Below, one piece after another: positions 2,726-63,671 of a DNA stretch of 64,000 nucleotides (its first letter is position 1; each line of letters starts with the position of its first letter). Under the pieces are notes generated by a model. The model saw nothing but the letters and a program-made list of their open reading frames with translations. It made no database searches and was not told the origin of the DNA. Made by a program: the position numbers and the translations under genes. Source of the stretch: a virus. Its lineage: Duplodnaviria; Caudoviricetes. The DNA lies in IMG/VR virus record IMGVR_UViG_3300005611_000021, positions 743-64,742 of that record; one strand, written 5' to 3'.

Positions 2726-2756
2726 AAGGGCGTTCCCATTCGTGGGGCGCCCTTTT
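2726..2756. terminator. Intrinsic terminator between convergent arms
   Basis: aagggcg...cgccctttt hairpin with T-tract, between + gene ending 2698 and - gene ending 2758. Confidence 0.75.
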
Positions 2757-2757: not shown

Positions 2758-2988
2758 CTATTCGCTTCTCGCCTGGTGCATTATCAAACTCTTCTCGTGG
2801 ATGCCTTCGTAAATGTCACCCAAAGAGTGAACATCATAGAACCAGCCTCCAAAGCGTGTTTCATCTCGATAAGCCTCTGATACTACGACACCAGACTGGA
2901 TCACAGCAGGGGCGCCCGGAGGGGCGATATTGAAGAAGACTTGATCCTCTTCATAGAATTTCGGACGGAATGAACGGATGGGAATCAT
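2758..2988 (-). CDS. Small protein with MIPIR N-terminal tag
   Basis: 76 aa, starts MIPIRSFR; ATGA-coupled. Confidence 0.8.
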   Translation of the reverse strand: MIPIRSFRPKFYEEDQVFFNIAPPGAPAVIQSGVVVSEAYRDETRFGGWFYDVHSLGDIYEGIHEKSLIMHQARSE

Positions 2989-3209
2989 AGCCTCGAGACT
3001 ACATCACACGAGACATGGTATCTCTTTCCGTTTGTATCCAGCTCAACAACATAGGTTGCCTTCCGGATACCCCTTCCGTCATCAACGAGTTGCTGAATCT
3101 TTCCCGTGTAAACTGAGAGGCCATCCCCAATATCTATACGACACCACACGAGTTCACCTGTAAGGAATTCGCCTTCGCCTTTTTTGGATGATCTGACTGG
3201 GATGCTCAC
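2985..3209 (-). CDS. Small protein with MSIPVR tag, SH3/KOW-like
   Basis: 74 aa; GELVWCRIDIGDGLSVYTGKIQ beta-barrel-like pattern; ATGA-coupled. Confidence 0.8.
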   Translation of the reverse strand: MSIPVRSSKKGEGEFLTGELVWCRIDIGDGLSVYTGKIQQLVDDGRGIRKATYVVELDTNGKRYHVSCDVVSRL

Positions 3210-3643
3210 ATTTCACCCTCCCATGGCTTGAGAACCGCGCTCGACTCGAGGTAGAATTTCCCATTGTGCATGAGGAGGTACCATGGGAGGTTTTTGATTG
3301 TCCCTTTTTCGCACATCTCTCTGTACGCTGGCCCAGGTTTCGTGAAGTCGATATGTAATCCTGATCCAATCCTCACGAGCATCTTGAGGACGATAGCGAC
3401 CGCATCATTCGGGAGATATCCCGCCCGAGCCTCCGTGAATGGGACAGCCTTTCCAGTGAGCCAGATGGCGGCATTCCACTTGCACTCTCGCATGTAGGAG
3501 GAGTATCTGGCCTTGACTGGGGGGCCACCCGCGACAGATGACAGAACGCGGCATTTGGGGCGAAGGACAACCGCATCACTTTCTTTATACCAGAGGGTCC
3601 ATTTTTCCGTTACAGGGATTTTGCCTCGGATTGGAATGCTCAT
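3206..3643 (-). CDS. Protein with MSIPIR tag (145 aa)
   Basis: Start re-assigned to ATG at 3643, which overlaps the upstream stop (ATGA). Confidence 0.8.
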   Translation of the reverse strand: MSIPIRGKIPVTEKWTLWYKESDAVVLRPKCRVLSSVAGGPPVKARYSSYMRECKWNAAIWLTGKAVPFTEARAGYLPNDAVAIVLKMLVRIGSGLHIDFTKPGPAYREMCEKGTIKNLPWYLLMHNGKFYLESSAVLKPWEGEM

Positions 3644-3876
3644 TCTGCGGATAACTCCGTATACCAATAATTGCGATAGATGGGGGCGTCTTTCCACGCA
3701 TTTATTTCCACCTGACACATTCGTTTTTCCGGCCAGGTCGCCACAACCGTTCCCGCGTATCCACGGAATCCGCACCCCTGCTTCTGGATGAATACCGTGT
3801 CTCCACAAGTGGCTTCATTGAGTGGAGTGTACCAGGTTCGACTACTGCCATGCCATGCTCTTACTGGAATGCTCAT
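3640..3876 (-). CDS. Small protein with MSIPVR tag, KOW-like
   Basis: Start at 3876 (ATGA overlap); CGDTVFIQKQGCGFRGYAGTVV. Confidence 0.8.
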   Translation of the reverse strand: MSIPVRAWHGSSRTWYTPLNEATCGDTVFIQKQGCGFRGYAGTVVATWPEKRMCQVEINAWKDAPIYRNYWYTELSAE

Positions 3877-4277
3877 CTCGAGTTCTTCTTTCGCTTGATT
3901 CTCCAGACTGCCGGCTCGTGTATGTATCCAAGGCGAGAATCCGGGGTCCATGTGTCCGGGTTGGCATCCAGCCAGACTTCAGATGCAATGAAGGGTTTTG
4001 TTTGGAATTTGTATTTCCATGAGTCTACACGAATCCCATGCTCATCACTCACCCATTCCTTTTGTATGAGCCGAACACAGATACTTTGTTTGTATGTGTG
4101 GTGCTGGAGGATGTATGGCCGATGGAAGTCAAATGAGAGGTCAGAGACAAACTTGAATGTCGTGGAAACAAGTGGCTTCGCCTTTATACCCATGGTTAGC
4201 CTTCCTCGGGTGAATGAGAACAGGGCTGTCTTCTCCGCATCAATACGATGGATTGTATTCAGAACCGGGATGCTCAT
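3873..4277 (-). CDS. Protein with MSIPVL tag
   Basis: Start at 4277 (ATGA overlap). Confidence 0.75.
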   Translation of the reverse strand: MSIPVLNTIHRIDAEKTALFSFTRGRLTMGIKAKPLVSTTFKFVSDLSFDFHRPYILQHHTYKQSICVRLIQKEWVSDEHGIRVDSWKYKFQTKPFIASEVWLDANPDTWTPDSRLGYIHEPAVWRIKRKKNSR

Positions 4278-4606
4278 GATGGGAATGGCATTTTGAAGTG
4301 TCTCAACACGATGGCCTTCACTTGTGGATGCCTGATGCCCGCACAACCCTTCCAGCCTTCAATCTTTGGAACGACAAACTTGAGACTGCCTCGTGTGCAG
4401 ATCAAGTCCTCATTCCACCAATACTGGCCATCACCCCATGCGAATGCCGCGGTAATGTTCTTAATGTCAGGAATCCGGATCACAAGGGCATGACGGATGC
4501 CATATCTCCGTTGAGCGGCCTCAAGGTAAGTATCCGCGAATTCGATGATATTGGTTTCAATGTTGCCAACGTCCCGATCCCAAACGGCTCTGACTCGTAA
4601 ACTCAT
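4274..4606 (-). CDS. Small protein with variant tag MSLRVR
   Basis: 110 aa; ATGA-coupled at both ends. Confidence 0.75.
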   Translation of the reverse strand: MSLRVRAVWDRDVGNIETNIIEFADTYLEAAQRRYGIRHALVIRIPDIKNITAAFAWGDGQYWWNEDLICTRGSLKFVVPKIEGWKGCAGIRHPQVKAIVLRHFKMPFPS

Positions 4607-4830
4607 CGCTTCGCCTCCGGGATGTATTGCAGCTCATCATCTAGTGACCAGCCGGGTGTCACGAGATCCAGGTCAATCTCGACATGGTAATCGAGACCAA
4701 TAGGCTTCACGATTGCCGTGGATTCCCGAACCTCAATAGCGCGACCGACAAGCCCATAGTGATCTCGATGCCAGATCGTGACCAACTTCCCTTCAATGAT
4801 CCTCTCCATGCCTTTGATGGGGATGCTCAT
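4603..4830 (-). CDS. Small protein with MSIPIK tag, SH3/KOW-like
   Basis: Start at 4830 (ATGA overlap); EGKLVTIWHRDHYGLVGRAIEV. Confidence 0.8.
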   Translation of the reverse strand: MSIPIKGMERIIEGKLVTIWHRDHYGLVGRAIEVRESTAIVKPIGLDYHVEIDLDLVTPGWSLDDELQYIPEAKR

Positions 4831-5039
4831 AAGACCTCGATTTCCTCCGGCTTGCAGGCCAGTCGCATGACTTTTCCCCTTGTTTCGTATTGCACCACAT
4901 AGGGCATGATGTTGTTCATATTCTCCTCGATCACGATGCCACCCTTGATGTCCTCGAATGAGGATGGCATCCGAAAGGTGAATCTGACTGCCCGGCCGAT
5001 TAAGGTTTTGCGTGCACGGAATGAACGAACCGGGATCAT
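4827..5039 (-). CDS. Small protein with MIPVR tag
   Basis: 70 aa, starts MIPVRSFR like the 2988 gene; ATGA-coupled. Confidence 0.8.
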   Translation of the reverse strand: MIPVRSFRARKTLIGRAVRFTFRMPSSFEDIKGGIVIEENMNNIMPYVVQYETRGKVMRLACKPEEIEVL

Positions 5040-5320
5040 ACGAGCATGTTCTTGATTTCGAATGGAACTTCATTAGCATCAACCTTCTGTACTTCGTGTA
5101 TGGAGAATGGGGTTTCCACCGTTTGCTCATCACGCACACCAGCTTCATGCAGGACAATGTATGGATATGGGACACCATCATGAATGCGTAGCAGTAACCC
5201 GTAGAATGAACCCAATGTTGCCGTGACCTTTACGAAGTCGCCCACCTTGAGGGTGAGCTCGTCCGCGATCTGCATGGCGGCCTCGGTGCTGATGTTGAGC
5301 GTCTTTATCGGGATGCTCAT
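5036..5320 (-). CDS. Small protein with MSIPIK tag, KOW-like
   Basis: Start at 5320 (ATGA overlap); KVGDFVKVTATLGSFYG. Confidence 0.8.
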   Translation of the reverse strand: MSIPIKTLNISTEAAMQIADELTLKVGDFVKVTATLGSFYGLLLRIHDGVPYPYIVLHEAGVRDEQTVETPFSIHEVQKVDANEVPFEIKNMLV

Positions 5321-5598
5321 ATTCCAGCAACAACATCGAGTGTCTTGGATGCTCGAAGTGTAGGTGACATGGCATAGCGGCCATAGGGTGAGATGCACTC
5401 CTCATTATCAACGATGGAGATGCCACGCCTTCTCTCGGCACCATCCACCATGATCGTGACGGTCTTTTCCGTGCGGGAGAGGACTTCATGCTTATAGATG
5501 CAATCGTAGTCGCCGATCGAGCGGGTTGCATAGACCTTTCCCACTTCAAACCGGATTGGAGCGATTGTGCTTTTGAGAGACTTGATTGGAATGCTCAT
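5317..5598 (-). CDS. Small protein with MSIPIK tag
   Basis: 93 aa; FEVGKVYATRSIGDYDC pattern; ATGA-coupled. Confidence 0.8.
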   Translation of the reverse strand: MSIPIKSLKSTIAPIRFEVGKVYATRSIGDYDCIYKHEVLSRTEKTVTIMVDGAERRRGISIVDNEECISPYGRYAMSPTLRASKTLDVVAGI

Positions 5599-5969
5599 TG
5601 CAGATCACGCAGCGGGATCGGCCAAGCTTCTTCATAGGCATCAGCCATCTCGCCTGCATCTTCATAGACATCCTCATAGGCGGGCTTGAACCCTTCCTTG
5701 ATCTCATGAACCGCCTCTTCCCCGAGTTCCTTGCATCTCATGGTGAGGAAACCCGCACATTCCTTGGATTCTTCCGTGCGAGCGGTATCCTCCTCGCCTT
5801 CCTCATTCTCAACATAACCAAGGGTTTTGTGGCATGGGAAGTCTGAGTATGGGTTTTGAGCTGCATAGGCGATATCCGCCGCCCTATCCGGATGAAGGAA
5901 GGGTTTCACATTCGTCTTGAATGGGCAATGTTGGCAAGGCTTTTCCATGAATGACTTTTCGCTACTCAC
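5595..5969 (-). CDS. Cys/His protein (PCxxCPF...FPCH...CAG), DUF6283-like
   Basis: Motif pattern recalled from phage proteins. Confidence 0.55.
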   Translation of the reverse strand: MSSEKSFMEKPCQHCPFKTNVKPFLHPDRAADIAYAAQNPYSDFPCHKTLGYVENEEGEEDTARTEESKECAGFLTMRCKELGEEAVHEIKEGFKPAYEDVYEDAGEMADAYEEAWPIPLRDLQ

Positions 5970-6832
5970 TTCTCTGCCCTCCTGAGTTCTCGCAGTTTAC
6001 GAACTGCCCAATCCATATTATCCTTGACCTTGAGTTGGCGGCCTTCGGGGGGCAAGAGTCCTTCCTCTTCGACAAACTCCCGCCAACGGCCAGGTCGTTT
6101 GCTCGATGGATTACGCGTGCCCTTGATGCCATTTCTCCAAAGTCCCTGGATGGCTGTGAGGTTCGGTTGAGCTTTGTCTTCCATCTCGAGAGCTTTTCGG
6201 AGAAGATCCGGATGCTTTTTTGCCAAAAGCCGAACTTCGCTCTTTTGCATCGATGGGCAAAAGAAACATGCGGATTTGACTGGTATCGGTAAGCCTGCTT
6301 GCTTGATCTCTTCCTTGCACTGCTCTCGATTCCATCCCCATTCTCGTAATGGATACCGGTAGGTGTATCTGGAATTGCTTTCAAGGATACCACCGCCGCG
6401 GCAAGAATCCTTTGGACCCGCATCGTATCCGATGAGTCGTTCGAGCTTCCCTCCCGCGGCCATGTATTGACCGAAATGGGGGTGATCCTCAAGCCACTTA
6501 TCCATTGGAGCCACTTTCCATTTGAGCGAGCAGGACTTCCGTCCGAATGCGATAGATGGGAGTGTGGAGTTTTGGATGCAATTCCCGTACAGGTCGGAGT
6601 AGGGGCCATGCTTGAACTTTTTTGGTTTGTATCTGACGACTGTAATCGGAGGGAATCCGACCTTCTTGAGCCATGGGGCCATGGTTTTCTCCAAGAAGGT
6701 GTATGTCTCCGGCCATTCATTCCCCACATCAGCGAAGAGGATGGCCGCAGGATACCAACCGAGATCATACATACCAACGAGCATCGCTGTGGAATCAACA
6801 CCTCCGCCATAACTAACGATCCTGTTGTTCAT
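5966..6832 (-). CDS. PAPS-reductase-family (adenine nucleotide alpha hydrolase) protein
   Basis: PP-loop SYGGGVDS, CSLKWK, KSACFFCP. Confidence 0.85.
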   Translation of the reverse strand: MNNRIVSYGGGVDSTAMLVGMYDLGWYPAAILFADVGNEWPETYTFLEKTMAPWLKKVGFPPITVVRYKPKKFKHGPYSDLYGNCIQNSTLPSIAFGRKSCSLKWKVAPMDKWLEDHPHFGQYMAAGGKLERLIGYDAGPKDSCRGGGILESNSRYTYRYPLREWGWNREQCKEEIKQAGLPIPVKSACFFCPSMQKSEVRLLAKKHPDLLRKALEMEDKAQPNLTAIQGLWRNGIKGTRNPSSKRPGRWREFVEEEGLLPPEGRQLKVKDNMDWAVRKLRELRRAEK

Positions 6833-7065
6833 CGCTTTGGCTGATTCCAGTCTGCCCGGCTCTTTGCCTGCTCTTGGCAGTGGATGGCATAGGCTTTTGC
6901 GTTACAGGGGTCACAGCGGACCCCTTGGAGCTTGACTCCATTCCACAATTCGACGGGAGGTCCCAGGCGGCGGCCGCAATCCTTGCACCGTGGTACATCC
7001 GCCTTTGCGTCAAGGACATCCTGTGGAGGGGTTCCGAATAGGTCATCATTTGCTTCGCTTGTCAT
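6829..7065 (-). CDS. Small CxxC...CxxC zinc-finger-like protein
   Basis: CKDC and CDPC; coupled to next gene. Confidence 0.6.
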   Translation of the reverse strand: MTSEANDDLFGTPPQDVLDAKADVPRCKDCGRRLGPPVELWNGVKLQGVRCDPCNAKAYAIHCQEQAKSRADWNQPKR

Positions 7066-7170
7066 AGGGAGCTAGTATTTCAGTTGAAACGCCTGTTTTG
7101 GAAGCCTTGAATGCCCCTTCTGCCACCGGATAGGTGGAAACGTGCATGAAGAGGTCTTCTAAGAGTTCCA

Positions 7171-7377
7171 TCATTGGTCGAATTCCTCGGGTTCATCACC
7201 ATCCCACTCCCAGTCACCACTGACGACTTTATCCGCCGCATGGGGGCCAGAGTGGAATTTACTTTTGTTCGCCAGATCTTCCGCTTCTTCCCAGTCTTCC
7301 GCAAGGACTGTTGCGGTTTCCTGAACAGATACGGTCTTGCATCTCGTAACGGTGAATAGTTTAGCACTCATGCTCAA
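7171..7377 (-). CDS. Hypothetical protein
   Basis: 68 aa acidic ORF; ATGA overlap. Confidence 0.6.
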   Translation of the reverse strand: MSMSAKLFTVTRCKTVSVQETATVLAEDWEEAEDLANKSKFHSGPHAADKVVSGDWEWDGDEPEEFDQ

Positions 7378-7733
7378 AGGTTCCTTTCAAGTATATCCTT
7401 GACGATTCCTTCGTAGAACTCAAGCCGACTTCTGGGGATATCCCTGCGTTGCCGGATGAGGAAGAACTCCGGGTCTTTGCCGAGCGGGTATGCGTATTCG
7501 TATCCGTGGACTTCAATATCTTCAATCTCCGTCTCCGTGCAGTGGTGTGTGCCAGGCTCTCCGCCGGTGCAATGGGTCCCTGCGTAGTCGAAAGAGGCAT
7601 CTCTCTCAATCTTTTGGTGAGTTGCGAATATCGCGGTGATTTCATATCCATTGAGGTCGAAGAGTTCGCCGGTTCCTGCCTGGTCGATTTCGATTCGATT
7701 TTCATCCGTACAGGATTCTAGTGCCTTAATCAT
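7374..7733 (-). CDS. Hypothetical protein
   Basis: Probable start MIKALE at 7733. Confidence 0.6.
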   Translation of the reverse strand: MIKALESCTDENRIEIDQAGTGELFDLNGYEITAIFATHQKIERDASFDYAGTHCTGGEPGTHHCTETEIEDIEVHGYEYAYPLGKDPEFFLIRQRRDIPRSRLEFYEGIVKDILERNL

Positions 7734-8400
7734 ACAGATCTCCCCCTGGCTCCTCATACTCAGGTACGACTCTCCCCTCGAATTCAGACAGGTTGCGTTC
7801 CATGGATTTGAGATCCTTCCGGGCTTCTTCTTCCGTATCGTAGAGGCTCAACTCATAGGTTTCTCCATTGTCGTGAGACTCCTTGAGGTCACACCAGTGT
7901 CCATGCACATTCGGCATCTGGATCTTGTATTGGCATTTCACCTCACGATATCCCCCATTATGCTCCATCCACTTCTCGAGAGTAGTAGGCCATGCGGGAT
8001 GTTTTGGAATGAATCTATGCAGGGGCGGGACGGTTTCGTAGTCATCGGAGATCTGACCGGTCGAACCGGAACCTGTTTTGTGGTTGGGTTCCCATTGATG
8101 GCCGTATGTCCATCGGTAGGGAACTTCACTGAAGCCCACGGTGCAGGCTTCCATGGTTTCCGTATTGAGGATCTTGAGGAAATACCAGCCTTCGCCAGGA
8201 TCAATCACACGGTATCCGTGATGAACCAATTCCTTCGCCCGGATGGTCAACCCCTTCTTGATCCATAGATGCCGATGCCGGTAGCAAAACCAGTAGTCTT
8301 TATTTTCAGCGGGCGTCCTGGTCTTGGGGTCGTAGGGCTTCGGCTCCGGCATCACGAATTTGATCTCAATCCCGTGTGGATTAGTGAGTGGCTTAATCAT
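7726..8400 (-). CDS. Hypothetical protein
   Basis: 224 aa, coupled to upstream gene. Confidence 0.65.
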   Translation of the reverse strand: MIKPLTNPHGIEIKFVMPEPKPYDPKTRTPAENKDYWFCYRHRHLWIKKGLTIRAKELVHHGYRVIDPGEGWYFLKILNTETMEACTVGFSEVPYRWTYGHQWEPNHKTGSGSTGQISDDYETVPPLHRFIPKHPAWPTTLEKWMEHNGGYREVKCQYKIQMPNVHGHWCDLKESHDNGETYELSLYDTEEEARKDLKSMERNLSEFEGRVVPEYEEPGGDLYD

Positions 8401-9284
8401 TCGGTGATCCTGTGTGGTTTGTCGTCATCCTTGAGCACCAACTCAGCCTTGAGGATGGAGCGGTATGGGCAGTTTTCCCCTTGCATCACGTAATGGATGG
8501 CTGTCTGCATATCCCGTGCATTTGTCTGGATTCTGGCCTCTCCGCCATCATGCCTGACCGTTACCATGTATTTCTGATTTTCGTAGGGGTTTTGGCCTCC
8601 AACTGAGTTCTCGAAACGTAGTGGCATCACGATGGCCGTCAGCTTGCACTGCGGGCGAGGAGTTGTGATCTCAAGTGCTCCATTCGGAACCTCCCGCAGG
8701 TGATGCAACACCTCACTACCCCCAAGCCCCTTGTGTACATACATCGTGTTCTCAAGATACTTGTAGTTATAGGTATTGCTGGCTATCGTGAGGATGTTGT
8801 GAATGTACGTGCTTTCACTTCGATTCGGCCTGACTGTCCCAATGTTTTTGCCTCCACGTTTTGGGATGTCAATGGGATCTGTCGGGTCCGGGTATTTTAA
8901 CTCGGATGGTGAGATCTCCATGACCTTCGTGTTGAGCTTCAGGATGCGGAATGACGGAACCTTGATTTCCTTGTTCTCGGGAACTTCATGTCGGTAGGAC
9001 TCAACAAACGCATCAATCATAGGGCCTTGTATATAGTGCAGGGTCCGCCCGGTTGTGGCCACGAGCGCCCATTCATCTTGGATCTTCACGATCCCGATTC
9101 CCTGGAGAGCGGGGCGGGCATTGCCCCCTCCCACTTCCTTGCCCATGGGACCATTCATGGATGCGGCATTGAGCCATTTCATCACAGGCACGAATTCCTT
9201 CCAGTCCCTTGCTGCGAGTGTTGTATCGATCCCGTATGTAGGGATGGCCTTTAGGTGGACGTGTGAGATTGTGTGTTTACTCAT
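8397..9284 (-). CDS. DNA polymerase III beta-clamp-like protein (partial, divergent)
   Basis: RPALQGIGIV...LVATTGRTLH resembles the clamp motif RPxLxG...LVATDGHRL; AIVMPLR resembles the clamp C-terminal VMPMR. Confidence 0.55.
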   Translation of the reverse strand: MSKHTISHVHLKAIPTYGIDTTLAARDWKEFVPVMKWLNAASMNGPMGKEVGGGNARPALQGIGIVKIQDEWALVATTGRTLHYIQGPMIDAFVESYRHEVPENKEIKVPSFRILKLNTKVMEISPSELKYPDPTDPIDIPKRGGKNIGTVRPNRSESTYIHNILTIASNTYNYKYLENTMYVHKGLGGSEVLHHLREVPNGALEITTPRPQCKLTAIVMPLRFENSVGGQNPYENQKYMVTVRHDGGEARIQTNARDMQTAIHYVMQGENCPYRSILKAELVLKDDDKPHRITE

Positions 9285-9916
9285 ATCTCGCGTTGTGCCC
9301 CTATGGCGATGGTGGAAGGTTTGACCTTCTCAAGCTTGAGGTTGATGGACTTGCCGAGATTCATGCGCTTCTCCGCGAAGTCATCCCGTGCAATAATGGT
9401 TTCTTTCATCTCCCAACAGTCACTCACTCCCCACTTGTTCATGAAATCCCCGAGCGCCGCCTGGAACTCGAAGTATTTGTCTTCCTTCTCCGCCTCAAGA
9501 CGCTCATGAATGATATCCGCCTTGAGTTCGATTCCATGGGATTCGTGGTAGTAGTCTCCGGAGTCATGGCCTGTCCCGTCGAAGATGTTTTCAATCTCAA
9601 CGATCTGGGCCTCATTGAGGGCATAGGCTCTCGTGGAGGGTTTGACTTGGAGGATACATCCATCAGGGAGTTCGACATTGAATGCCCCTGGAAGCCCTCC
9701 GAAGATACGCTTGCGGGCATTTTCGAGGAGTTGTTGCTTGATCTCACTTCCATCAACTTCTCCCTTGGCGATCTTTGCGGCCTCAATGGATTCATGGAGT
9801 TCGAGTAGTTCATCATCTGTCATTCCGATGTCGGATGGGACGATTCTTGGTGTTTTGCTTTTGCTTCCGCTTGTTTTAGTTGTGCGGATGGCTTTCTTTT
9901 TCGTTGTAATAGGCAT
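9281..9916 (-). CDS. Hypothetical protein
   Basis: 211 aa, basic N-terminus, A/C-rich leader. Confidence 0.7.
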   Translation of the reverse strand: MPITTKKKAIRTTKTSGSKSKTPRIVPSDIGMTDDELLELHESIEAAKIAKGEVDGSEIKQQLLENARKRIFGGLPGAFNVELPDGCILQVKPSTRAYALNEAQIVEIENIFDGTGHDSGDYYHESHGIELKADIIHERLEAEKEDKYFEFQAALGDFMNKWGVSDCWEMKETIIARDDFAEKRMNLGKSINLKLEKVKPSTIAIGAQREI

Positions 9917-9918
9917 GG

Positions 9919-10071
9919 TTAATGGCCCTTTCTATTGTTGGTGTTTTCGGTTGATTCGGTTGATTTTACTTCTTTTGGGTCGAACATCGACAGAAACGCA
10001 TCAGCTGCCCCATTGATGAGGGCAAGTGTGACGAGTTTCGCTTTTTGGCAGAAGGTGAGCTGGATCTTCAT
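9919..10071 (-). CDS. Small hypothetical protein (50 aa, not in ORF track)
   Basis: MKIQLTFCQK...; ATG overlaps the ligase stop and fills the gap. Confidence 0.5.
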   Translation of the reverse strand: MKIQLTFCQKAKLVTLALINGAADAFLSMFDPKEVKSTESTENTNNRKGH

Positions 10072-10685
10072 CGTGTGGAGAACCTGAATTTGATCCAGTT
10101 GCCGCTCACCTGTGTTGGCGACTGGATTTGATGGGGATACTTGGATTTGGCCTTCACAGCGACAACACCCTCAACGACTGGTTGAGTCTCCCGGTTGCGC
10201 TTCATGATCCCCTTGGCCATGTTGATGAGGCTATTGTATCGATCCGTGTTGAACGATGAGCCATACCACCATGGGAGAATGAGGATTTTGGAATCCGCTT
10301 TGAGTGGTTTTGGCATCGGGATGGTTTCCTCGAACTCAGGGAATCCGAGAGTTTCCAGACGCTTCATGCAATCCTCAAAGGAATCCTTGCGTTCAGGTAG
10401 GTCCAGGAATGCGATATGGTTCTTCATCCAGATGGATTTGCACATCCACTCACAATCGAACCACTCGTCACTGACTTGGAGTTCTTCCCGGAACTTCCGC
10501 AACTCCTCGAGAGGGATGTTTTTTCCTTTGGTGTAGCGAACACCATGCCGGTTGAACATCTCTCCCGTGATAACATTGACCAATACTCGATCCCCATTGA
10601 CTTTGGGGCGAAATATGTGGTCGTGCATGTGCTTAGTGATTCTAGGCCCTCCGTTTCGAGGCCGTGCTGGGTAGGTAGGTATCAT
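10068..10685 (-). CDS. ATP-dependent DNA-ligase-like adenylation domain (no OB domain)
   Basis: Motif I PKVNGDR, III FDCE, IIIa FLDL, IV EGVVAVK, V WIKFR in correct order; 205 aa. Confidence 0.7.
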   Translation of the reverse strand: MIPTYPARPRNGGPRITKHMHDHIFRPKVNGDRVLVNVITGEMFNRHGVRYTKGKNIPLEELRKFREELQVSDEWFDCEWMCKSIWMKNHIAFLDLPERKDSFEDCMKRLETLGFPEFEETIPMPKPLKADSKILILPWWYGSSFNTDRYNSLINMAKGIMKRNRETQPVVEGVVAVKAKSKYPHQIQSPTQVSGNWIKFRFSTR

Positions 10686-10900
10686 TCTCTACACACGAAC
10701 ATCAAGTGTTCGGGCTTGAATCCGGTATGGACATATCTGTCATTTTCATCAGACCAGATCTTAACTCCATAAGCGCGGAGACCCGGCTTTGGTGTAGACT
10801 CGATTTTGCCATGCACGTTGAAGAAATCCCCTCTATGGAGGACAAGAACGGTGTCACCGATTTGATATACACGCTCATGCCTTCGAATCGGTATGCTCAC
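10682..10900 (-). CDS. Small protein with MSIPIR tag, KOW-like
   Basis: GTG start; QIGDTVLVLHRGDFFNVHGKI. Confidence 0.8.
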   Translation of the reverse strand: MSIPIRRHERVYQIGDTVLVLHRGDFFNVHGKIESTPKPGLRAYGVKIWSDENDRYVHTGFKPEHLMFVCRE

Positions 10901-11102
10901 AGAATGCTTTCTTTGGAGTAAGCATTACCTTTTCCGCAGCGATGGGTGGGCATCTGACGCATTCATCTTCCTGAGAACCTTGTCCAACGCTTAGGCTTCC
11001 TTCGCTCGTGAGCTCTCCATGAATCCCGTGATTGGACCCGCATGAGTGTGAGGGTCTTGGGGATTTGCTTCACACAAAACCAGACACGGAAGATCAACTG
11101 CC

Positions 11103-11798
11103 TCATGACTTGAATTTCCTTCGCAGGACATGCCCGACAATGGACAGGTATGAGGTGAATAGATCCTGAACGCTTTCCCTGACGATACTCTTATCGAAGT
11201 AGTTTGCGAGGACTTCCTGCTGTTTCTGGTAGCCAACGTACAAGCCAATACAGGAGACCCCGTGCTTTCGCCAGAGCGTAGGCTCGAGAGCTTCATCTTG
11301 GATGTTGGCATCCGTGTAACAGGTCACAAGGTCGGACTTTGTGACATCATCCATGAACGTCCTGAACGTCTGGGATATGCCCTCATAATTGTGGGAGGCG
11401 GATAGGCATGACCACACCCAGTCCGGCTGTGGCAAGGGTACCTTGAATCCATTCTCCCTGCGACTGCTCGTGTAGCCCGTACAGAGAATGTTTGCGTTGA
11501 TGAGCTTCCGTTGGTGAAGGCGACTCATGATGGCGCACAACTGAACCGCTCCATCCATGGGACTTCCTGACATGGAGCCAGAACAATCCACGATGACTGT
11601 GACGGTGGGGATTCCCTCTTCATTCGGTTTTGGCCGCTTGAAGTAGCCTTCCATTGACTTCCTTGCGATGGCCTTCATATCCACACGCCCGGATGAGAAT
11701 GTCCTGATCTTCCCATGCCCGCCTTTGAAGGCTCTGGCAAAGGGCTGGACATTTCTATCTGCGAGCTTGGTATCGACTGGGTAGTATCCGATACTCAT
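11103..11798 (-). CDS. VWA (MIDAS) domain protein
   Basis: VIVDCSGSM MIDAS motif; YTDA. Confidence 0.8.
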   Translation of the reverse strand: MSIGYYPVDTKLADRNVQPFARAFKGGHGKIRTFSSGRVDMKAIARKSMEGYFKRPKPNEEGIPTVTVIVDCSGSMSGSPMDGAVQLCAIMSRLHQRKLINANILCTGYTSSRRENGFKVPLPQPDWVWSCLSASHNYEGISQTFRTFMDDVTKSDLVTCYTDANIQDEALEPTLWRKHGVSCIGLYVGYQKQQEVLANYFDKSIVRESVQDLFTSYLSIVGHVLRRKFKS

Positions 11799-12955
11799 CA
11801 GTGTCCGAATGGAGAGAAGTAGTCGCCGGACAGCCCTAACTTCGCGAGCTGCATCTGTGCGGCCTGCTTGGATGATGGGACGGTCTCGATGGTGGATTCG
11901 TCTTCTGAATTCGCCTTGAGGTTCGTTCCTGTGCCTTTGAGTTTCTTCTTGTCATCGTGTGGATCTATGGGGTCTTCGTCCACGGTTTCTCCACCGTGAT
12001 CTTCCTCCTCTTTGTCCTCAAGCTGGAACTTTTCCCCTTTGGGGTCTTCTCCAGTTGCGACCTTGATGGCGATGAGGAAGTCCTCTCCCGGTCCTGCGAG
12101 CTGTGGGATCTCCCGATTACCCGGAAAGAGTTCCTGCCATGCTTTGCAGAAGGGCAGGATGCTTTCCGTTGTTGGGTAACGGTGATGGGAGTTCCTTCCC
12201 GCGAGTTGCCTCCATAGACTGAGGAATGTCCCGAATCCGATGTCCTTACAGGGGCCAATTCGGTAGGTTCCTTTGTGCGTCTTGAAGGGGATTGTCTTCT
12301 TGGGGCCGGGGAAACCCTTGTTGATATCCCCGAATGTGGACACATATAGCTGCTTCAGTGCTTCAATGTTGACTTTGGTTCCTTCCGCTTGGATGAGGGC
12401 GAGCATCACGCTCTCAGGTGAATCCTCCCGCATTTTCGGTTTTTCCCAATAGAGCCAATCGAACTTCCGGATGCCATAGGATTCGGAATCCACGAGCGTT
12501 CCATCATAGGTGAGCTCCTGTGGATTGATCTGCTTGCCATCTTTGTAGGTTGGTCGTCGGCCACGCATGAGACCTTCGATCCGTGCATCTTCCAGCAGGT
12601 TGATGAGCGGGAATCCGACCTTTTCACTCGCAGCGAATTCCAGGAACTCCCGGAATAGCCTGGTCGTGTAGAGGCCATGGCCTACCTCGTGAAGGTAGGT
12701 TGATTTCGCATACTTCAGTTCCTTCCGGGATGATCGCTTTTCCTTGAGACGCTTGGGATGGTCAACCAAGCTAACGATGGTTGGGTTCATTTGGATGCGA
12801 TGAGTGCCCGTGTGGAACGACCAACAAGCGGTCGGTACCTCCGGATCATCCTTCCAGTTGAATGTCGCCTTGGTGTCGAGGGTGTCCAGCGTTCTTTCTA
12901 CGTGGACCTCCTCAATCCTTCGTTGGTCCCTTGGTGTGAGGAAGTCCTTACTCAT
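11798..12955 (-). CDS. CobT-N-like / HExxH metallopeptidase-like protein
   Basis: YLHEVGH and INLLEDARIE motifs; adjacent to VWA and AAA genes. Confidence 0.7.
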   Translation of the reverse strand: MSKDFLTPRDQRRIEEVHVERTLDTLDTKATFNWKDDPEVPTACWSFHTGTHRIQMNPTIVSLVDHPKRLKEKRSSRKELKYAKSTYLHEVGHGLYTTRLFREFLEFAASEKVGFPLINLLEDARIEGLMRGRRPTYKDGKQINPQELTYDGTLVDSESYGIRKFDWLYWEKPKMREDSPESVMLALIQAEGTKVNIEALKQLYVSTFGDINKGFPGPKKTIPFKTHKGTYRIGPCKDIGFGTFLSLWRQLAGRNSHHRYPTTESILPFCKAWQELFPGNREIPQLAGPGEDFLIAIKVATGEDPKGEKFQLEDKEEEDHGGETVDEDPIDPHDDKKKLKGTGTNLKANSEDESTIETVPSSKQAAQMQLAKLGLSGDYFSPFGH

Positions 12956-13356
12956 GCGGGCAGGATGTCCATCTCGATCGCATCTTCCGTGATGACCACT
13001 TGGAGGGTTGCCCCCTTCACGAGCATGGCCAAGCCCTTGTCGCTGATTTCAAGGACTTCAACGTAGTCGTCGCCACCAAGCTCAACATTAGGACCGAAGC
13101 CTTGTGCATACTCCACAAGTGGAAGCTTTTCGCCTTCCTCATTCAGGCCGCGGGAGAGTTCACTCTCCTCAACACCACTCATGAGATACACACCGGCATC
13201 TTTCACGATTTCAAGGTGTGCGGGAGGGGTTTCGTCCTCTTCGTAGTAGCATCCATAAGGATTTGAGAAGGCTTTGCCTTCCTTCTTTGCATCGATCGTC
13301 TCTTGAGCAAGAGCCACAAGGTTCTCGCTTGTCGGGAAACGGAATAAACCACTCAC
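12952..13356 (-). CDS. DUF3085-like protein
   Basis: IVKDAGVYLMS and GGDDYVE motifs. Confidence 0.6.
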   Translation of the reverse strand: MSGLFRFPTSENLVALAQETIDAKKEGKAFSNPYGCYYEEDETPPAHLEIVKDAGVYLMSGVEESELSRGLNEEGEKLPLVEYAQGFGPNVELGGDDYVEVLEISDKGLAMLVKGATLQVVITEDAIEMDILPA

Positions 13357-13357
13357 G

Positions 13358-14587
13358 TTAGAAGGACTTATTCACGATGGATTCCCATGCTTTCACCTGC
13401 TCGGTCATAGGCAGGCCGTCATGATCCTCGGCGACAAACCAAGTGTTGAAGCCGTCTGCCAGCAACTCGTCTTTGAGTTGTTTCTTGGCTTCGGATTCCT
13501 TTGGCTCATGAACGAGTGATATGAGGTGAGTGAATTCACGGATGCTCGGTGAGTTTTCGAGCAAGTGTTTCTTCTCAGCGTCAACGCCGGCCTTCCATAG
13601 GTTGATGAAGCAGGTCGTGATGTGATCTGTCCATCCACGAGTCTTCACAACTGGGCCAATTACATCCTTGATGAGGTTCACGGATGTGTCCGTGTAGAAT
13701 GGCTTGAACCTGGCTCGGATCGCCGGGGTGTCCGGCTCGCAATCGAACTTGGTTCCGCTATTCTGGGTGCCGATGATGGAGATGTTGGACATCGGTGCGG
13801 TGATCTTACGAGTCACCATGATGCCATCCTCTTCAACGGGTTCACCTGTATCAAGCGTGAGGTTGCCATCCGCGTCAGGTGATGTGGCCGTCTGGAAGGC
13901 TTGTTTTGCCTTGCGTGGGACGTTTCCAATCTCATCGAGGATGATACAGACTGATTTCCCGGCGGCGGCCAGGATGAACGCCTGAGCGAGTGGCCCATTG
14001 ATCCATTTGAAGTTTCCATCAGCCCCGATGCCTGGGCCTGCGATGAAATCCCGTGCTTCCATGTCAGCCATACATCCAACCTTGATGACGAGATCAAAGC
14101 CTGCGGTGTTGGCCCATTGGGTGACGGAAAACGTCTTGGAGGCGCCTGGGGGTCCCTTGAAGATGACAAACCATTTGCCTTCCCCGAGTTCCTGACCCGG
14201 ACGACAGAACTTCTCACAGTTGCGGAAGATGAGACTTCCTTTGCCGGATTTGGCCGCAATCTTCTTCGCTGACATGATGACTTTTTTCTTCTTCTCGTCA
14301 TCTGCCATTGCGGTCAGTTGATCCACCAAAGCAGCAGCGATTGCTGCCGTATCTACCTTAGATGCGAACTTTTTAGAAACGATCGCGAGTACATCATCAC
14401 AGAAGTTCTCATCCGGGTGAATGCCTTCCTTTTCCATGATGGCGATAATGTGAGACTCGAAGTCCTTATTCGCCTTGAGTTCAGCAAGGATGGCGTTCGG
14501 GTCTGCGGAGCCACCGATAGATTTGATTGCATCTTGGAGCTCTTTAGACTCCTTTACGGCCTCTACGAGTACGGGCGTTATGTCCAT
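13358..14587 (-). CDS. MoxR/CbbQ/CobS-type AAA+ ATPase
   Basis: Walker A GPPGASKT, Walker B IILDE, sensor GTQN, arginine finger RARF. Confidence 0.85.
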   Translation of the reverse strand: MDITPVLVEAVKESKELQDAIKSIGGSADPNAILAELKANKDFESHIIAIMEKEGIHPDENFCDDVLAIVSKKFASKVDTAAIAAALVDQLTAMADDEKKKKVIMSAKKIAAKSGKGSLIFRNCEKFCRPGQELGEGKWFVIFKGPPGASKTFSVTQWANTAGFDLVIKVGCMADMEARDFIAGPGIGADGNFKWINGPLAQAFILAAAGKSVCIILDEIGNVPRKAKQAFQTATSPDADGNLTLDTGEPVEEDGIMVTRKITAPMSNISIIGTQNSGTKFDCEPDTPAIRARFKPFYTDTSVNLIKDVIGPVVKTRGWTDHITTCFINLWKAGVDAEKKHLLENSPSIREFTHLISLVHEPKESEAKKQLKDELLADGFNTWFVAEDHDGLPMTEQVKAWESIVNKSF

Positions 14588-14889
14588 TAGGCTTCCTTCT
14601 CGATCCAGTCTTTTAGCGAGAGCTCGGTTTCATGAGAGGCAACTGCGGCAACCCATGCGGCCTTTTGAGCCTTTTTACGATTATCGCTGCTGAAGTCTGT
14701 CTGGAATGGACTTCCCTTGGATTTGGCTTCGTTTTCGATACGTAGTTTCACGGTTTGGTACACGTCATCCATAAACTGCTCGCTTGGTGTGTAACCAACT
14801 TCCATCATGCGTTCTTCCGCAAGATTCTTAATAGCCTCACGAACTTCCGCATTCCCTTTGAGGGCATTCAGTAGTTTCTCGGTCTTCAT
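14587..14889 (-). CDS. Hypothetical protein
   Basis: 100 aa, coupled at both ends. Confidence 0.65.
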   Translation of the reverse strand: MKTEKLLNALKGNAEVREAIKNLAEERMMEVGYTPSEQFMDDVYQTVKLRIENEAKSKGSPFQTDFSSDNRKKAQKAAWVAAVASHETELSLKDWIEKEA

Positions 14890-15104
14890 CGAATCAACTC
14901 CGCGAGGAAATCCATCTCTTGCTGCGTTGGGACATACGTACCAACCTCAACCTCATGCTCCTCGCATCCGACTTGTGCGAACTGCGTGGTCACTGGATGA
15001 TTAGCTCGGAGTTCTGAATAGCGGGAGAGGATTTCTCCAACTGATCTGGGCTCACGAGAGTTTTCACAAGCCTGCCGTAAGTGTGTCGCTGTGGATACAC
15101 TCAT
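14886..15104 (-). CDS. Hypothetical protein
   Basis: 72 aa, ATGA-coupled. Confidence 0.55.
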   Translation of the reverse strand: MSVSTATHLRQACENSREPRSVGEILSRYSELRANHPVTTQFAQVGCEEHEVEVGTYVPTQQEMDFLAELIR

Positions 15105-15223
15105 GCGTCTGTGATAGCAATCGTGGTTGTATTCCCCTGCGGGATCACCGTGAAGGCGACATTTCTTGCTATTAGATCGGACACTACGTCCTTTGTGTGT
15201 TTGGTTTCTATTGCTAATTTCAT
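15101..15223 (-). CDS. Small hypothetical protein (40 aa, not in ORF track)
   Basis: MKLAIETK...; AGGAG upstream; stop overlaps next ATG. Confidence 0.5.
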   Translation of the reverse strand: MKLAIETKHTKDVVSDLIARNVAFTVIPQGNTTTIAITDA

Positions 15224-15355
15224 GGCATTTTCTCCTACGTACCGGGGACTAACGGGTACGGGTCGTGTGAATTTCCCGTCCGGCTGACCAAGCCTTTCGG
15301 GGGGTGACGTTTAGAAGGGACTCCTACCGCTCGTCAGCACGGTAGGAGAATTACG

Positions 15356-15383
15356 AAATTGGGCCATCCCACCCAACCGATTA
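15356..15383. repeat. Conserved intergenic element, copy A
   Basis: aaattgggccatcccacccaaccgatta; ends in the stop codon of the 15381 gene. Confidence 0.7.
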
Positions 15384-15752
15384 TCGCAAGCTCAGAATCT
15401 TCGGAAGGCTGTAAACGCACCCATCCTCATCCTTCTCGAATTTGCAACGGACGATGTATCTACCATCATCCATCTTGACTCGAGAGGCGAGAATGCCTGA
15501 GCCTGAGCCTTCTTCGCACTGCACAAGGTTCAAGCACTTGCGATTGAAGGCCATATCACTATCGCCAAATCGCACCCAGTACACATCATCCATGTGTCCT
15601 ACGTTTACAAGGATTCCCCTTTGCCCGATACGTGAGCGGGTCCTCTCAGACCACACGTTGCCCCTCAAGGGTTTGAACCCTTTTGGGACGGTATCCACGA
15701 CCTCAACGACCCAGTGGCGTCCCTGGTCGCGGGCACGGACGGGGATGCTCAT
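15381..15752 (-). CDS. Protein with MSIPVR tag
   Basis: 123 aa; IGQRGILVNVGHMDDVYWVRFG barrel-like pattern; ATGA overlap. Confidence 0.8.
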   Translation of the reverse strand: MSIPVRARDQGRHWVVEVVDTVPKGFKPLRGNVWSERTRSRIGQRGILVNVGHMDDVYWVRFGDSDMAFNRKCLNLVQCEEGSGSGILASRVKMDDGRYIVRCKFEKDEDGCVYSLPKILSLR

Positions 15753-18010: not shown

Positions 18011-18019
18011 ATTATAGCA
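18011..18019 (-). promoter_or_regulatory. Extended -10 sigma70-type promoter for the leftward arm
   Basis: Minus strand reads TGcTATAAT in the divergent intergenic region, about 150 nt upstream of 17860. Confidence 0.55.
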
Positions 18020-18164
18020 TCCCCTGCAATCCCTTTCTATCACTGGCCTCGTCGCCTCTTTGAGTGGTCAAAATATAACTAATAAGCTTAACTAAGCATA
18101 AGTCAAATTCCTGAAAACTGCGCGTTTTGGCCTTGACTGGGAGAGGCCCGATTTATGTATAACT

Positions 18165-61263: not shown

Positions 61264-61689
61264 ATGATAGTACAGTTCAAAAAACTCCATCCGAAAGCTC
61301 AAGCCCCTGTCAAACAACACGACCGGGATGCTGGCTTCGATATTCATTGCCTTGGCAAAGAGTATGCCAAGCTCGACAAGCTTCAGGTCGTCGTGAAGAC
61401 AGGCTTGGCCGTCGACATCCCTGAAGGTTATGTTGGCCTCCTCTTCCCTCGTAGCTCCATTTCCCGCACGGATATGAGTCTATCCAATTCCGTTGGTGTC
61501 ATTGATTCCGGGTATCATGGGGAAATCCTGGGCAAATTCAATTACCATGGCCCGGATCACTATGATGAAGGGGATCGCTGCCTTCAGCTCATCATTATGC
61601 CAATTCCATCCATCAACTTCCAAGAGGTTGAAGAATTCGAGAGTGATAGCGAGAGGGGAATCAAAGGCCACGGATCAACTGGTAAATGA
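61264..61689 (+). CDS. dut: dUTPase (trimeric)
   Basis: AGFDI, FPRSS, GVIDSGYHGE, CLQL, RGIKGHGSTG. Confidence 0.95.
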   Translation: MIVQFKKLHPKAQAPVKQHDRDAGFDIHCLGKEYAKLDKLQVVVKTGLAVDIPEGYVGLLFPRSSISRTDMSLSNSVGVIDSGYHGEILGKFNYHGPDHYDEGDRCLQLIIMPIPSINFQEVEEFESDSERGIKGHGSTGK

Positions 61690-61967
61690 TTCCAATCAGG
61701 CCCTTTCCTAAAGTCTGGCCTGCATCTGAATACTTAGATACCCATCGAGTCACCAAGAACTACTCAGACGGAACCATTTTATTCCGGATGAGGATGGGTA
61801 TTTCCTTCATAACAACTGGATCTCTCCTCGTTCTGAAGGAAATACAAAGAAATGGAGATGTTTTCATTTCTTGTGTGAAGGTCATCAGGATTGTTGAGAT
61901 ACAAGAGACCGCGGCCGTGAAGTGTGAGCCTGCTCAATACTTCCCCTGGATGGAGGAATTGCTATGA
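61686..61967 (+). CDS. Small protein with MIPIR tag
   Basis: 93 aa; ATGA-coupled to dut. Confidence 0.75.
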   Translation: MIPIRPFPKVWPASEYLDTHRVTKNYSDGTILFRMRMGISFITTGSLLVLKEIQRNGDVFISCVKVIRIVEIQETAAVKCEPAQYFPWMEELL

Positions 61968-62056
61968 GCATACCCGTAAGACGCAAACGTAAGATCCCTA
62001 TCGTCATCCTTAGTGAAGCGATCAAGAGAGGAACAACAAAGAGAGGAATGACATGA
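61964..62056 (+). CDS. 30-aa peptide with MSIPVR tag (not in ORF track)
   Basis: MSIPVRRKRKIPIVILSEAIKRGTTKRGMT; ATGA overlaps at both ends. Confidence 0.65.
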   Translation: MSIPVRRKRKIPIVILSEAIKRGTTKRGMT

Positions 62057-62352
62057 TACCTGTACGAAGTAAGAGATTCAGGCCATTACGCCTCAAGATG
62101 CGGGACAATGCCAAGCTTGTCGCTCAAGCTAAACAGGAGGAAATTTCTCGCCCTCAACGCTTTGAAGTCGATTGCAGTAGTAAGAACATCTATCTCTCAT
62201 ACCACCCTGGCTATGGACAAGTAATCAAATACAACCATCCAAACGCACGGGAGGGGGATCGCTGCATCTTCAAATGGGTGAACCTGCATCCGGGTGTTGG
62301 GACATATTATGGGGTTTACTTAGGTAAAGGATTGTGGAGGGCAAGGTCATGA
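62053..62352 (+). CDS. Small protein with MIPVR tag
   Basis: 99 aa; ATGA-coupled. Confidence 0.75.
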   Translation: MIPVRSKRFRPLRLKMRDNAKLVAQAKQEEISRPQRFEVDCSSKNIYLSYHPGYGQVIKYNHPNAREGDRCIFKWVNLHPGVGTYYGVYLGKGLWRARS

Positions 62353-62657
62353 TCGAATACAAAGTGGATAAAGTCTTCCGGGATCTCATAGGCACGAAAG
62401 CCTGGACCATGGTAGATACCTCAAAAATCGAAGCTGCGAGTGCTGAAGGGTGCGAGTTATGTATAACTCATGTGAATTCCCTTGGGATGGTCGTTGGCCG
62501 TCAAACCATTGAGCCTGAAGAGGTAGATGACCTACCCCGCAATCAGGCCGTGATGCTCGGGAATAAGCATTTCACCTTCGTAGACTGGGAGGAAGATACC
62601 GATCGGAAGCATCGGCTTCATGGATGTAAACAAGACACGTTCTTTGATGAGTATTGA
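62349..62657 (+). CDS. Hypothetical protein (untagged)
   Basis: Probable start MIEYK; ATGA-coupled. Confidence 0.65.
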   Translation: MIEYKVDKVFRDLIGTKAWTMVDTSKIEAASAEGCELCITHVNSLGMVVGRQTIEPEEVDDLPRNQAVMLGNKHFTFVDWEEDTDRKHRLHGCKQDTFFDEY

Positions 62658-62899
62658 TGAGCATTCCTGTCCGAGCATGTATGCTTGATGTGTATTGCAT
62701 CTGCCACCTTAATGAGGATGATGAGCTCATTCGCCCTGTTGAATACATCAAGACCGATGAATACGAATGCAGTGATGAGGATGCTAAGTTGATCGCTCAG
62801 GGTTTGATGACCATTGAGTATGAGAGGATGTCACCATTCGACTATTACCCGGATTACCTTGAGTTCCTTGTGAATGGCCTGGAGGCGATGTGGTCATGA
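62657..62899 (+). CDS. Small acidic protein with MSIPVR tag
   Basis: TGATG overlap. Confidence 0.75.
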   Translation: MSIPVRACMLDVYCICHLNEDDELIRPVEYIKTDEYECSDEDAKLIAQGLMTIEYERMSPFDYYPDYLEFLVNGLEAMWS

Positions 62900-63141
62900 G
62901 TATTCCTGTTGTAAAGTTCACTCGGTTTATTGAGTTCAATGAGGTAGTCTATGTGAAGCCTCTCGACACATGGGGGTTTATGGATCGGGTAAAGACCACA
63001 CCATACGGGCTTAGGGTGTATCGGGTGCGCTTCCTCTATCGCTCTCCTCAATGGTTTTGTCGCATACAGCTCCAGGTGAGAGAAGAGTGTAAGGATGAGG
63101 GCACATTACGTTGGTTTAATAACTTCGATACGAGACGATGA
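62896..63141 (+). CDS. Small protein with MSIPVV tag, SH3-like
   Basis: ATGA overlap; VYVKPLDTWG...YRVRF...WF similar to the next gene. Confidence 0.75.
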   Translation: MSIPVVKFTRFIEFNEVVYVKPLDTWGFMDRVKTTPYGLRVYRVRFLYRSPQWFCRIQLQVREECKDEGTLRWFNNFDTRR

Positions 63142-63383
63142 GCATCCCTGTCCGTACATCGCCACGTCTTCGTCCACGCCTCTCGCTTGGTCAGGCCGTG
63201 TATGCCCATGACTTTGACGCTTATGGGATTGTGGATGGCACAAAGATGAGTCCAGTCAGGCGAGGGGTCAGACTGTACCGGGTGCGCTTCAAGTATGAGC
63301 ATCACTGGTTTACACGTAACCAGATCCAAACCAAGGATGAGCATCACCGATCAACGGCAAATGATGATGGCTATGGAGAATAG
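63138..63383 (+). CDS. Small protein with MSIPVR tag, SH3/KOW-like
   Basis: LGQAVYAHDFDAYGIVDG...YRVRF...WF. Confidence 0.8.
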   Translation: MSIPVRTSPRLRPRLSLGQAVYAHDFDAYGIVDGTKMSPVRRGVRLYRVRFKYEHHWFTRNQIQTKDEHHRSTANDDGYGE

Positions 63384-63404
63384 GGCGTTGGCCATGGATA
63401 AGGT

Positions 63405-63671
63405 ATGAGCATTCCTGTCCGCATGAGAGCCACGATACTTCACGATTATGATGTGGAGCCTAAGGTGCATAGATGGTCCATAGCGACCAATTCTGATGGT
63501 CAAAAGTGGCTCGCTCTCATCATGGATAAACAGCCTTGGCATAATGCTAAAGGGCATCGCTTACGCTTCTGCACTCTAGCACATGACCTTATGTGTAAGT
63601 ATGAATACTTCAGTGTGTACTTAGGTCAAGGTGATGGCCTCTATAAGTATGTCTTTCGGGTATGGCGTTGA
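63405..63671 (+). CDS. Small protein with MSIPVR tag
   Basis: 88 aa. Confidence 0.75.
   Translation: MSIPVRMRATILHDYDVEPKVHRWSIATNSDGQKWLALIMDKQPWHNAKGHRLRFCTLAHDLMCKYEYFSVYLGQGDGLYKYVFRVWR

Follow-up and report, generated by a model that had tools for sequence, protein, structure and literature searches.

Short terminal peptides common to otherwise unrelated phage proteins seem to be a recurrent device, by which groups of accessory proteins are singled out for treatment as one class; the classic case is the capsid-targeting sequence (CTS) of phage T4. A different type of short docking peptide is the IxI/V motif (IPV or IPI, for example), which binds within the beta4/beta8 groove of alpha-crystallin domains and needs no free end to do so; known motifs of this type are C-terminal or internal. 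Among the T-even internal proteins (IPI, IPII, IPIII and Alt), the CTS is a short N-terminal peptide common to diverse, fast-evolving small proteins with clustered genes (PMC3012670). N-terminal signals for ClpX likewise occur on unrelated proteins, such as lambda O (TNTAKI...) and Dps (STAKL...) (Flynn et al. 2003, tabulated in PMC8138137), and the IAP-binding motif is a demanding N-terminal signal for which substitution of Ser for Ala at position 1 already loses BIR2/BIR3 activity (PMC3760131). Here we describe an N-terminal tag, M(S)IP[VI][RK], that is common to 17 small open reading frames (ORFs) within a 64,000-nucleotide stretch of viral DNA (termed here the window), which corresponds to bases 743-64742 of the 64,742-bp IMG/VR record IMGVR_UViG_3300005611_000021 (CheckV completeness, 97%). 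It is a case of an already known kind, namely, a common terminal tag on diverse phage proteins.

The tagged starts were found by a six-frame scan of the window; the first 742 bases of the record were checked as well and contain no extra copy. The 17 ORFs encode 30-145 residues and begin either with M-S-I-P (13 copies) or with M-I-P (four copies); the residue after Ile-Pro is Val or Ile in all 17, and the next one is Arg or Lys in 16 and Leu in the remaining one. Eleven starts are on the minus strand and six on the plus strand (61686-63671). Neither M-x-x-I-P nor a second residue other than Ser or Ile occurs in any of the 17 copies detected by the scan, which bears out the original prediction that the tag exists in two forms only; no other spacing is seen. 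The density of such starts is far beyond chance: the pattern IP[VI][RK], when preceded at one or two residues by a start codon and when the open frame spans 25 residues or more, occurs 16 times in the 64-kb window versus eight times in 2.19 Mb of control phage and metagenome DNA (never twice in one locus), that is, at roughly 70 times the control density. (The copy starting MSIPVL, which lacks the final Arg or Lys, falls outside this count, and a spurious antisense match on the minus strand at 46426 was set aside.) Once the tag is removed, no pairwise similarity is detectable among the remaining protein bodies (best E-value 0.013 against the 17-sequence database), the isoelectric points of which range from 4.1 to 12; the bodies have either diverged beyond recognition or were never related.

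Codon usage indicates that the tag is conserved as amino acids, under purifying selection, because the codons for Ile, Pro, Val and Arg drift synonymously and because the DNA upstream is not conserved. The tag's Ile is encoded by ATT seven times, by ATC seven times and by ATA three times; the four Pro codons are used 4, 5, 4 and 4 times; six different codons appear at the Val/Ile position; and the Arg/Lys position is filled by CGT, CGA, CGC, AGA, AGG, AAA and AAG, thereby including both the CGN and the AGR families. Over the 20 nucleotides preceding the tagged starts there is no conservation. Such free variation at third codon positions rules out that the tag is in the main a motif of RNA or DNA. 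Repeated N-termini were also seen in control loci (MSRYY, STLT, AAWL and PYAP), all of which were rejected as protein tags inasmuch as they are plain DNA repeats with conserved flanks; the tag described here differs from them in kind.

The explanation favored here, to which we assign a probability of about one half, is that M(S)IP[VI][RK] constitutes a genuine short linear motif under selection as a peptide and provides a docking handle on small, fast-evolving ORFan accessory proteins. As a strand that is short and extended, the handle would fit into a groove belonging to one common partner, with the Ile and the Val/Ile side chains occupying hydrophobic pockets and with the Arg or Lys forming a salt bridge to the partner. 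The phage or its host could thereby treat the whole tagged set as one class, for example through timed removal by way of an N-terminal degron, or through recruitment. MSIP and MIP would then be two spellings of one handle; their equal register would be a by-product of common descent, of starts locked in ATGA overlaps and of the loss of a spacer codon in one sub-family; and an extra, tag-specific constraint would keep the Ser codon as AGC. A five-residue N-terminal tag, if its register is defined, could be put to use as a portable means of sorting proteins, of degrading them or of recruiting them. Also counting in favor of the handle is that the first eight residues of every copy are free of acidic side chains.

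Precedents for such a handle are the ClpX signals of lambda O and Dps and the T4 CTS, and the IxI/V motif resembles it as well. ClpX N-terminal signals comprise about five residues at the N-terminus after Met removal, with a small polar residue followed by hydrophobic ones and then a basic one (polar, hydrophobic, hydrophobic, basic, hydrophobic in the N-motif class); one AAA+ machine reads these signals on unrelated proteins. In the tag, S-I-P-V-R resembles S-T-A-K-L, but has Pro at position 3 and its basic residue one place later. The likeness to the IxI/V motif pointed out in the original prediction stands insofar as the I-P-[VI] core is identical in all 17 tags, whereas no HSP20 domain (PF00011) was found in the phage record at E-values up to 1 (a control search was positive in 13 of 14 genomes); a small heat-shock protein of the host may still be a partner. 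An IxI/V-type groove would also fit a second IP[VI] that occurs 6-8 residues past the tag in two of the proteins: IPVT at residue 9 of the protein encoded at 3206-3643 on the minus strand (MSIPIRGKIPVT), and IPIV at residue 11 of the protein encoded at 61964-62056 on the plus strand (MSIPVRRKRKIPIV). Compared with these two copies about 0.08 would be expected (Poisson p ~0.003). A reader specific for the protein's end could not bind such internal copies, whereas a groove that accepts the I-P-[VI] core anywhere could do so; on this analysis they would count in favor of the docking handle.

Two further tag-like sequences were seen nearby. The tagged protein encoded at 5317-5598 contains a similar IAPIR at residues 12-16, and the untagged, Cys-rich protein encoded just upstream of the tagged array (5595-5969, minus strand) ends in ...WPIPLRDLQ; this tag-like IPLR overlaps with the region where the first of the tagged genes starts.

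Several observations weigh against the docking handle. First, the Ser codon is AGC in all 13 MSIP tags, though AGC constitutes merely 12% of Ser codons genome-wide and though 11 other real genes starting with Met-Ser(AGY) use AGT (starts 4606, 5969, 9284, 11798, 12955, 13356, 15104, 35454, 41041, 46109 and 50225) while at most two use AGC (Fisher's exact p ~1e-5, computed by hand). A general codon preference near gene starts is ruled out as the cause by these other Met-Ser genes, which take AGT. Thus a tag-specific constraint fixes the C at position +6, which selection on the peptide alone does not predict; since AGC is invariant, part of the constraint must act on the nucleic acid or the codon. 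The upstream frame stops at TGA ahead of the constrained base, and the window lacks tRNA genes. Second, all 17 genes could descend from one ancestor, in which case their common start may have been inherited and may not be portable. Third, no partner for the tag came to light: neither a BIR domain nor a ClpS-like protein nor any other N-end reader was found among 20 window proteins searched with Pfam or among the 10 of these searched with PHROGs, a search that took in neither the remainder of the genome nor the host. All that these searches of 20 early-region proteins did reveal was an AAA_5 domain and two weak matches, one to PAPS_reduct and one, for a protein with an HExxH motif, to a 'peptidase'; a sequence search of the PDB yielded no match for the proteins encoded at 8397-9284 and 7726-8400, and the leads obtained from the ESM Atlas, SH3-like and MATH-like, were no more than weak. 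Fourth, the AlphaFold2 single-sequence models obtained for two tagged proteins (10682-10900, pLDDT 50; 4603-4830, pLDDT 41) are too poor to tell a free tag from one that belongs to the fold. Finally, in the data covered the tag is confined to one phage lineage, which leaves no second tagged lineage in which co-variation between the tag and a partner could be seen.

Among the scanned proteins is a trio encoded on the minus strand at 11103-14587, as delineated by Pfam, by PHROGs and by eye: an AAA_5 (MoxR/dynein-type) ATPase; a 385-residue protein with a zinc-peptidase-like HEVGH motif; and a protein with a DCSGS motif, read by eye, which suggests a von Willebrand factor A (VWA) fold. It is unlikely that this AAA/VWA/HExxH trio is a dedicated reader, and this too counts against the docking handle, because five tag-less relatives of this phage (with large terminases, TerL, 65-71% identical to that encoded here) carry the same genes, which in those relatives are 22-47% identical to the ones in the window.

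One of the minus-strand genes sheds further light on the AGC codon. Located inside the tagged array at 4274..4606, it encodes 110 residues beginning with MSLRVR (ATG AGT TTA CGA GTC AGA) and looks like a decayed copy of the tag, in which Ile has become Leu, Pro has become Arg, and AGC has become AGT. Ile-Pro and AGC have thus been lost together, as one would anticipate were each of them maintained only for as long as the tag functions.

The alternative that survives best, though it is unlikely, is that there is no receptor at all and that the tag consists of the inherited first codons of one diverged paralogue family, kept because this 5' coding sequence and the nascent peptide would make for efficient initiation or reinitiation of translation and for efficient early elongation in tightly coupled genes. 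This would be in keeping with the fact that 13 of the 17 starts lie in a four-nucleotide ATGA or GTGA overlap with the stop codon of the gene upstream, and one more in TGATG; that about half of the tagged genes have no recognisable Shine-Dalgarno (SD) sequence; that AGC is fixed against the genome's own preference and against the AGT used at other Met-Ser starts; and that the tag is confined to a single lineage. On the other hand, every other codon of the tag drifts synonymously, even switching between CGN and AGR, which is the mark of selection on amino acids; other translationally coupled genes in the same operons manage without the tag; and the homology among bodies that a paralogue family might have retained is not detectable.

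Next comes the model put forward in the original prediction, which we consider rather unlikely: that a receptor binds the free alpha-amino group together with x-I-P-[VI]-[RK] at a fixed distance, in the manner of BIR domains and AVPI. The premise is sound. Methionine aminopeptidase (MetAP) removes Met when residue 2 is small and uncharged, and leaves it when residue 2 is bulky (PMC3154147), so that the two forms of the tag are predicted to mature to S-I-P-[VI]-[RK] and M-I-P-[VI]-[RK], each with exactly one residue before Ile-Pro; all 17 copies are at this minimal distance from the N-terminus. Moreover, in the 13 copies with a four-nucleotide overlap codon 2 must begin with A, and of the amino acids having such codons (I, M, T, N, K, S and R) only S and T keep the register; the non-cleavable N, K, R and M never occur at position 2, which fits the register idea. 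Also in its favor, Ser is retained in four copies that lack the four-nucleotide ATGA overlap (starts 10900, 62657, 63138 and 63405).

Yet the register is less telling than it seems. Only two forms exist, and the overlap-locked starts put other registers out of easy reach: with the start locked and a single codon between ATG and Ile, there is hardly any simple in-frame insertion or deletion available other than the one that converts MSIP into MIP. If the family goes back to a single MSIP ancestor, the exclusive occurrence of MSIP and MIP is therefore not far from the null expectation. Moreover, the four MIP copies have an extended start in common (MIPIRSFRP, MIPVRSFRA, MIPVRSKRF and MIPIRPFPK, i.e., MIP[VI]R[SP][FK][RP]), and in two of them (2965-2988 and 5016-5039, minus strand, at the genes starting at 2988 and 5039) the differing tag codons are followed by 12 identical nucleotides, CGTTCATTCCGT, encoding RSFR. 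These two features suggest that the MIP copies are one sub-family that arose by one or a few deletion events rather than by repeated convergence. (The presence of the same 12 nucleotides in two genes with unrelated bodies could be due to local selection or to past exchange.) Hence the equal register is not by itself evidence that a free alpha-amino group is read.

The identity of the terminal residue, too, is unlike what known end-readers accept. Thr, Gly and Cys, which are MetAP-cleavable and one mutation away from AGC, are absent at position 2, as is Ala, even though all are equivalent in register; position 2 is constrained more tightly than the register model needs, and the invariance of AGC is not predicted by it. 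Known end-readers are choosy about residue 1, BIR binding already being lost when Ala is replaced by Ser (PMC3760131); a reader of the tag would have to treat Ser and Met alike. The analogy to the IAP-binding motif, offered in the original prediction as an analogy only, holds insofar as that N-terminal motif of four residues has Pro third and a hydrophobic residue fourth; it fails at position 1, which there must be Ala, read along with its free amino group, but which in the tag is predicted to be Ser (13 copies) or Met (four copies), the latter of which would not fit. When the internal IP[VI] copies are added, along with the lack of any recognised BIR, ClpS-like or other N-end reader in the part of the genome covered by our scans, the two spellings and their predicted equal register stand, while the step from these to a receptor of the free N-terminus finds no support of its own. 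The register idea is a hypothesis.

Improbable for its part is a capsid-targeting or packaging signal, whereby the tag would dock proteins onto the scaffold or inner shell for packing into the head and for delivery with the DNA. The anatomy is that of the T4 CTS, in that a short N-terminus is common to otherwise unrelated, diverse small phage proteins with clustered genes. But the T4 CTS is at least about 10 residues long and is cleaved by the prohead protease after Glu, whereas the tag consists of 5-6 residues and is followed by no conserved acidic residue that could provide a T4-type cleavage site: the first Asp or Glu falls anywhere from residue 9 to residue 29, and none precedes residue 9 in any copy. 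The tag also lies in an early-type operon, unlike the T4 CTS. More specifically, the minus-strand tagged genes belong to a leftward replication operon of sigma-70 type rather than following the GTTGACW motifs that precede structural genes, a position that speaks weakly against a place inside the virion; GTTGACW is absent from the minus strand across this operon, and its overall frequency is no higher than chance. Seventeen species of cargo would be many for a 65-kb head, and the tag is missing from relatives whose head genes are the same ones (55-70% identical).

Least probable is the most elaborate proposal, namely, that about one fifth of the genes are labelled with a five-residue N-terminal address, that a dedicated free-end reader recognises it in fixed register, and that AGC adds a second, RNA-level layer of control over the same genes. 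Such a reader would give phages or bacteria their own equivalent of end-reading systems like the IAP-binding motif with its BIR domain or the N-degron adaptors.

The firm gains from weighing these explanations alongside the docking handle are that the tag is real and selected as a peptide, that it belongs to one phage lineage, that its MIP form is a sub-family, and that its Ser codon is under a nucleotide-level constraint, for which any model of the tag must account.

The 11 minus-strand tagged genes all reside in one gap-free leftward operon running from 17860 to 2758, which also holds replication-type genes in addition to the AAA_5 ATPase, the VWA-like protein and the HExxH protein. This 15-kb operon is headed by a putative sigma-70-like promoter at 18011..18039 (minus strand), identified by consensus match only and having an extended -10 element (TAGAAA, a 17-nucleotide spacer, TG and TATAAT). 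At its end (2726..2754), between the convergent gene ends at 2698 (plus strand) and 2758 (minus strand), is a strong hairpin with an 11-bp stem followed by a run of T. Because the operon has a sigma-70-like promoter and replication-type genes, its tagged members are probably early or middle accessory genes.

Within the operon's distal part, the array genes, which tile by ATGA overlaps, occupy ten consecutive positions on the minus strand. The array opens, downstream of 5595-5969, with 5317..5598 (93 residues, MSIPIK), and continues with 5036..5320 (94 residues, MSIPIK), for which Pfam gives SH3- and HAS-barrel-like matches at sub-threshold scores only. It then proceeds through 4827..5039 (70 residues, MIPVRSFR..., one of the two genes having CGTTCATTCCGT in common) and 4603..4830 (75 residues, MSIPIK) to the decayed copy. 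Beyond the latter are 3873..4277 (134 residues, MSIPVL, the sole copy without Arg or Lys), 3640..3876 (78 residues, MSIPVR, with an ATGA overlap), 3206..3643 (145 residues, MSIPIR, with its second IPV at residue 9) and 2985..3209 (74 residues, MSIPVR), the last of which has a GTG start in a GTGA overlap and a GGAGG-like SD sequence upstream. The last gene both of the array and of the operon is 2758..2988 (76 residues, MIPIRSFR...), the start of which forms an ATGA overlap with the stop codon of 2985-3209.

Two further tagged genes are located elsewhere in the operon, likewise on the minus strand. The gene at 10682..10900 (72 residues, MSIPIR, GTG start) is isolated, lacks an overlap with an upstream stop codon, and is flanked by a gene for a 205-residue protein (10068-10685) and by the VWA-like gene. 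The gene at 15381..15752 (123 residues, MSIPVR) encodes an ORFan with weak SH3-like look-alikes from residue 12 onward. Beyond the region to which the original prediction applied, the same phenomenon recurs in a second cluster of six tagged genes on the plus strand (61686..63671), with starts at 61686 (MIPIR), 61964 (MSIPVR, 30 residues), 62053 (MIPVR), and 62657, 63138 and 63405 (all MSIPVR).

The phage itself, which is uncultivated, is remote from those in culture, none of which has a TerL more than 27% identical to the one encoded here. TerL proteins 65-71% identical to it occur in 15 IMG/VR contigs, five of which were read in their entirety (207 kb in total). These five have head, tail and AAA/VWA/HExxH genes in common with this phage, but within them there is neither an occurrence of ATGAGCATHCC, nor an over-represented N-terminal motif, nor a protein homologous to any of the tagged ones. 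TerL proteins more distantly related to that of this phage (30-45% identical) are found on contigs binned into metagenome-assembled genomes of Verrucomicrobiota; such binning is a weak pointer to a host within that phylum.

Searches beginning from the tagged proteins lead to a similar picture. Three of them (15381-15752, 3206-3643 and 3873-4277) are ORFans, for which searches returned the queries alone: the 3206-3643 protein matched only itself among 5.8 billion proteins, and the 3873-4277 protein has no full-length homologue among 1.84 billion representatives. A tblastn search of cultured phages gave no match either. A scan of IMG/VR with a DNA pattern for the tag hit 72 contigs once each and none twice; a few unrelated phage genes in IMG/VR do begin with MSIPVR, at one per contig. 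The PAPS-reductase-like neighbor gene at 5966-6832 provided another point of entry: in 160 loci (80 from IMG/VR and 80 from metagenomes) surrounding homologues at most 61% identical to its product, none had more than one start-proximal IP[VI][RK]. The nearest such proteins (P0001-P0004) are 67-72% identical, and the phages from which they come may be tagged relatives.

Among 401 sampled Verrucomicrobiota genomes there were no clusters of tagged genes. The tag pattern produced 52 matches in these genomes versus four for a control pattern, an excess that turned out to be a false lead: it stems from one conserved DNA stretch, ttcatcaggttaccCagcATGAGCATACCGATCAG, observed here only in short frames of 32-54 codons and never at the beginning of a long gene. 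This stretch recurs in many Verrucomicrobiota genomes (L285-L288, L291, L292, L305 and L306) and probably belongs to a conserved host gene whose true frame or strand is a different one, so that its likeness to the tag is a matter of chance.

Two unrelated features were noticed in other viral contigs. On a 202-kb contig (IMGVR_UViG_3300022723_000184; L009:5463-6172, minus strand) there are 11 copies of a repeat of about 33 nucleotides or longer, tcatcttctaaaccgATGAGCAGGTATTACGAT, at a spacing of 56-73 bp (in most cases 72-73 bp) and forming a CRISPR-like array on what is a large viral contig. On another contig (L018; IMGVR_UViG_3300033066_001769) the palindrome GTCAACGTTGAC is present at six sites, with both strands represented; in many cases an ORF follows directly, and the palindrome may be an operator or other regulatory site.

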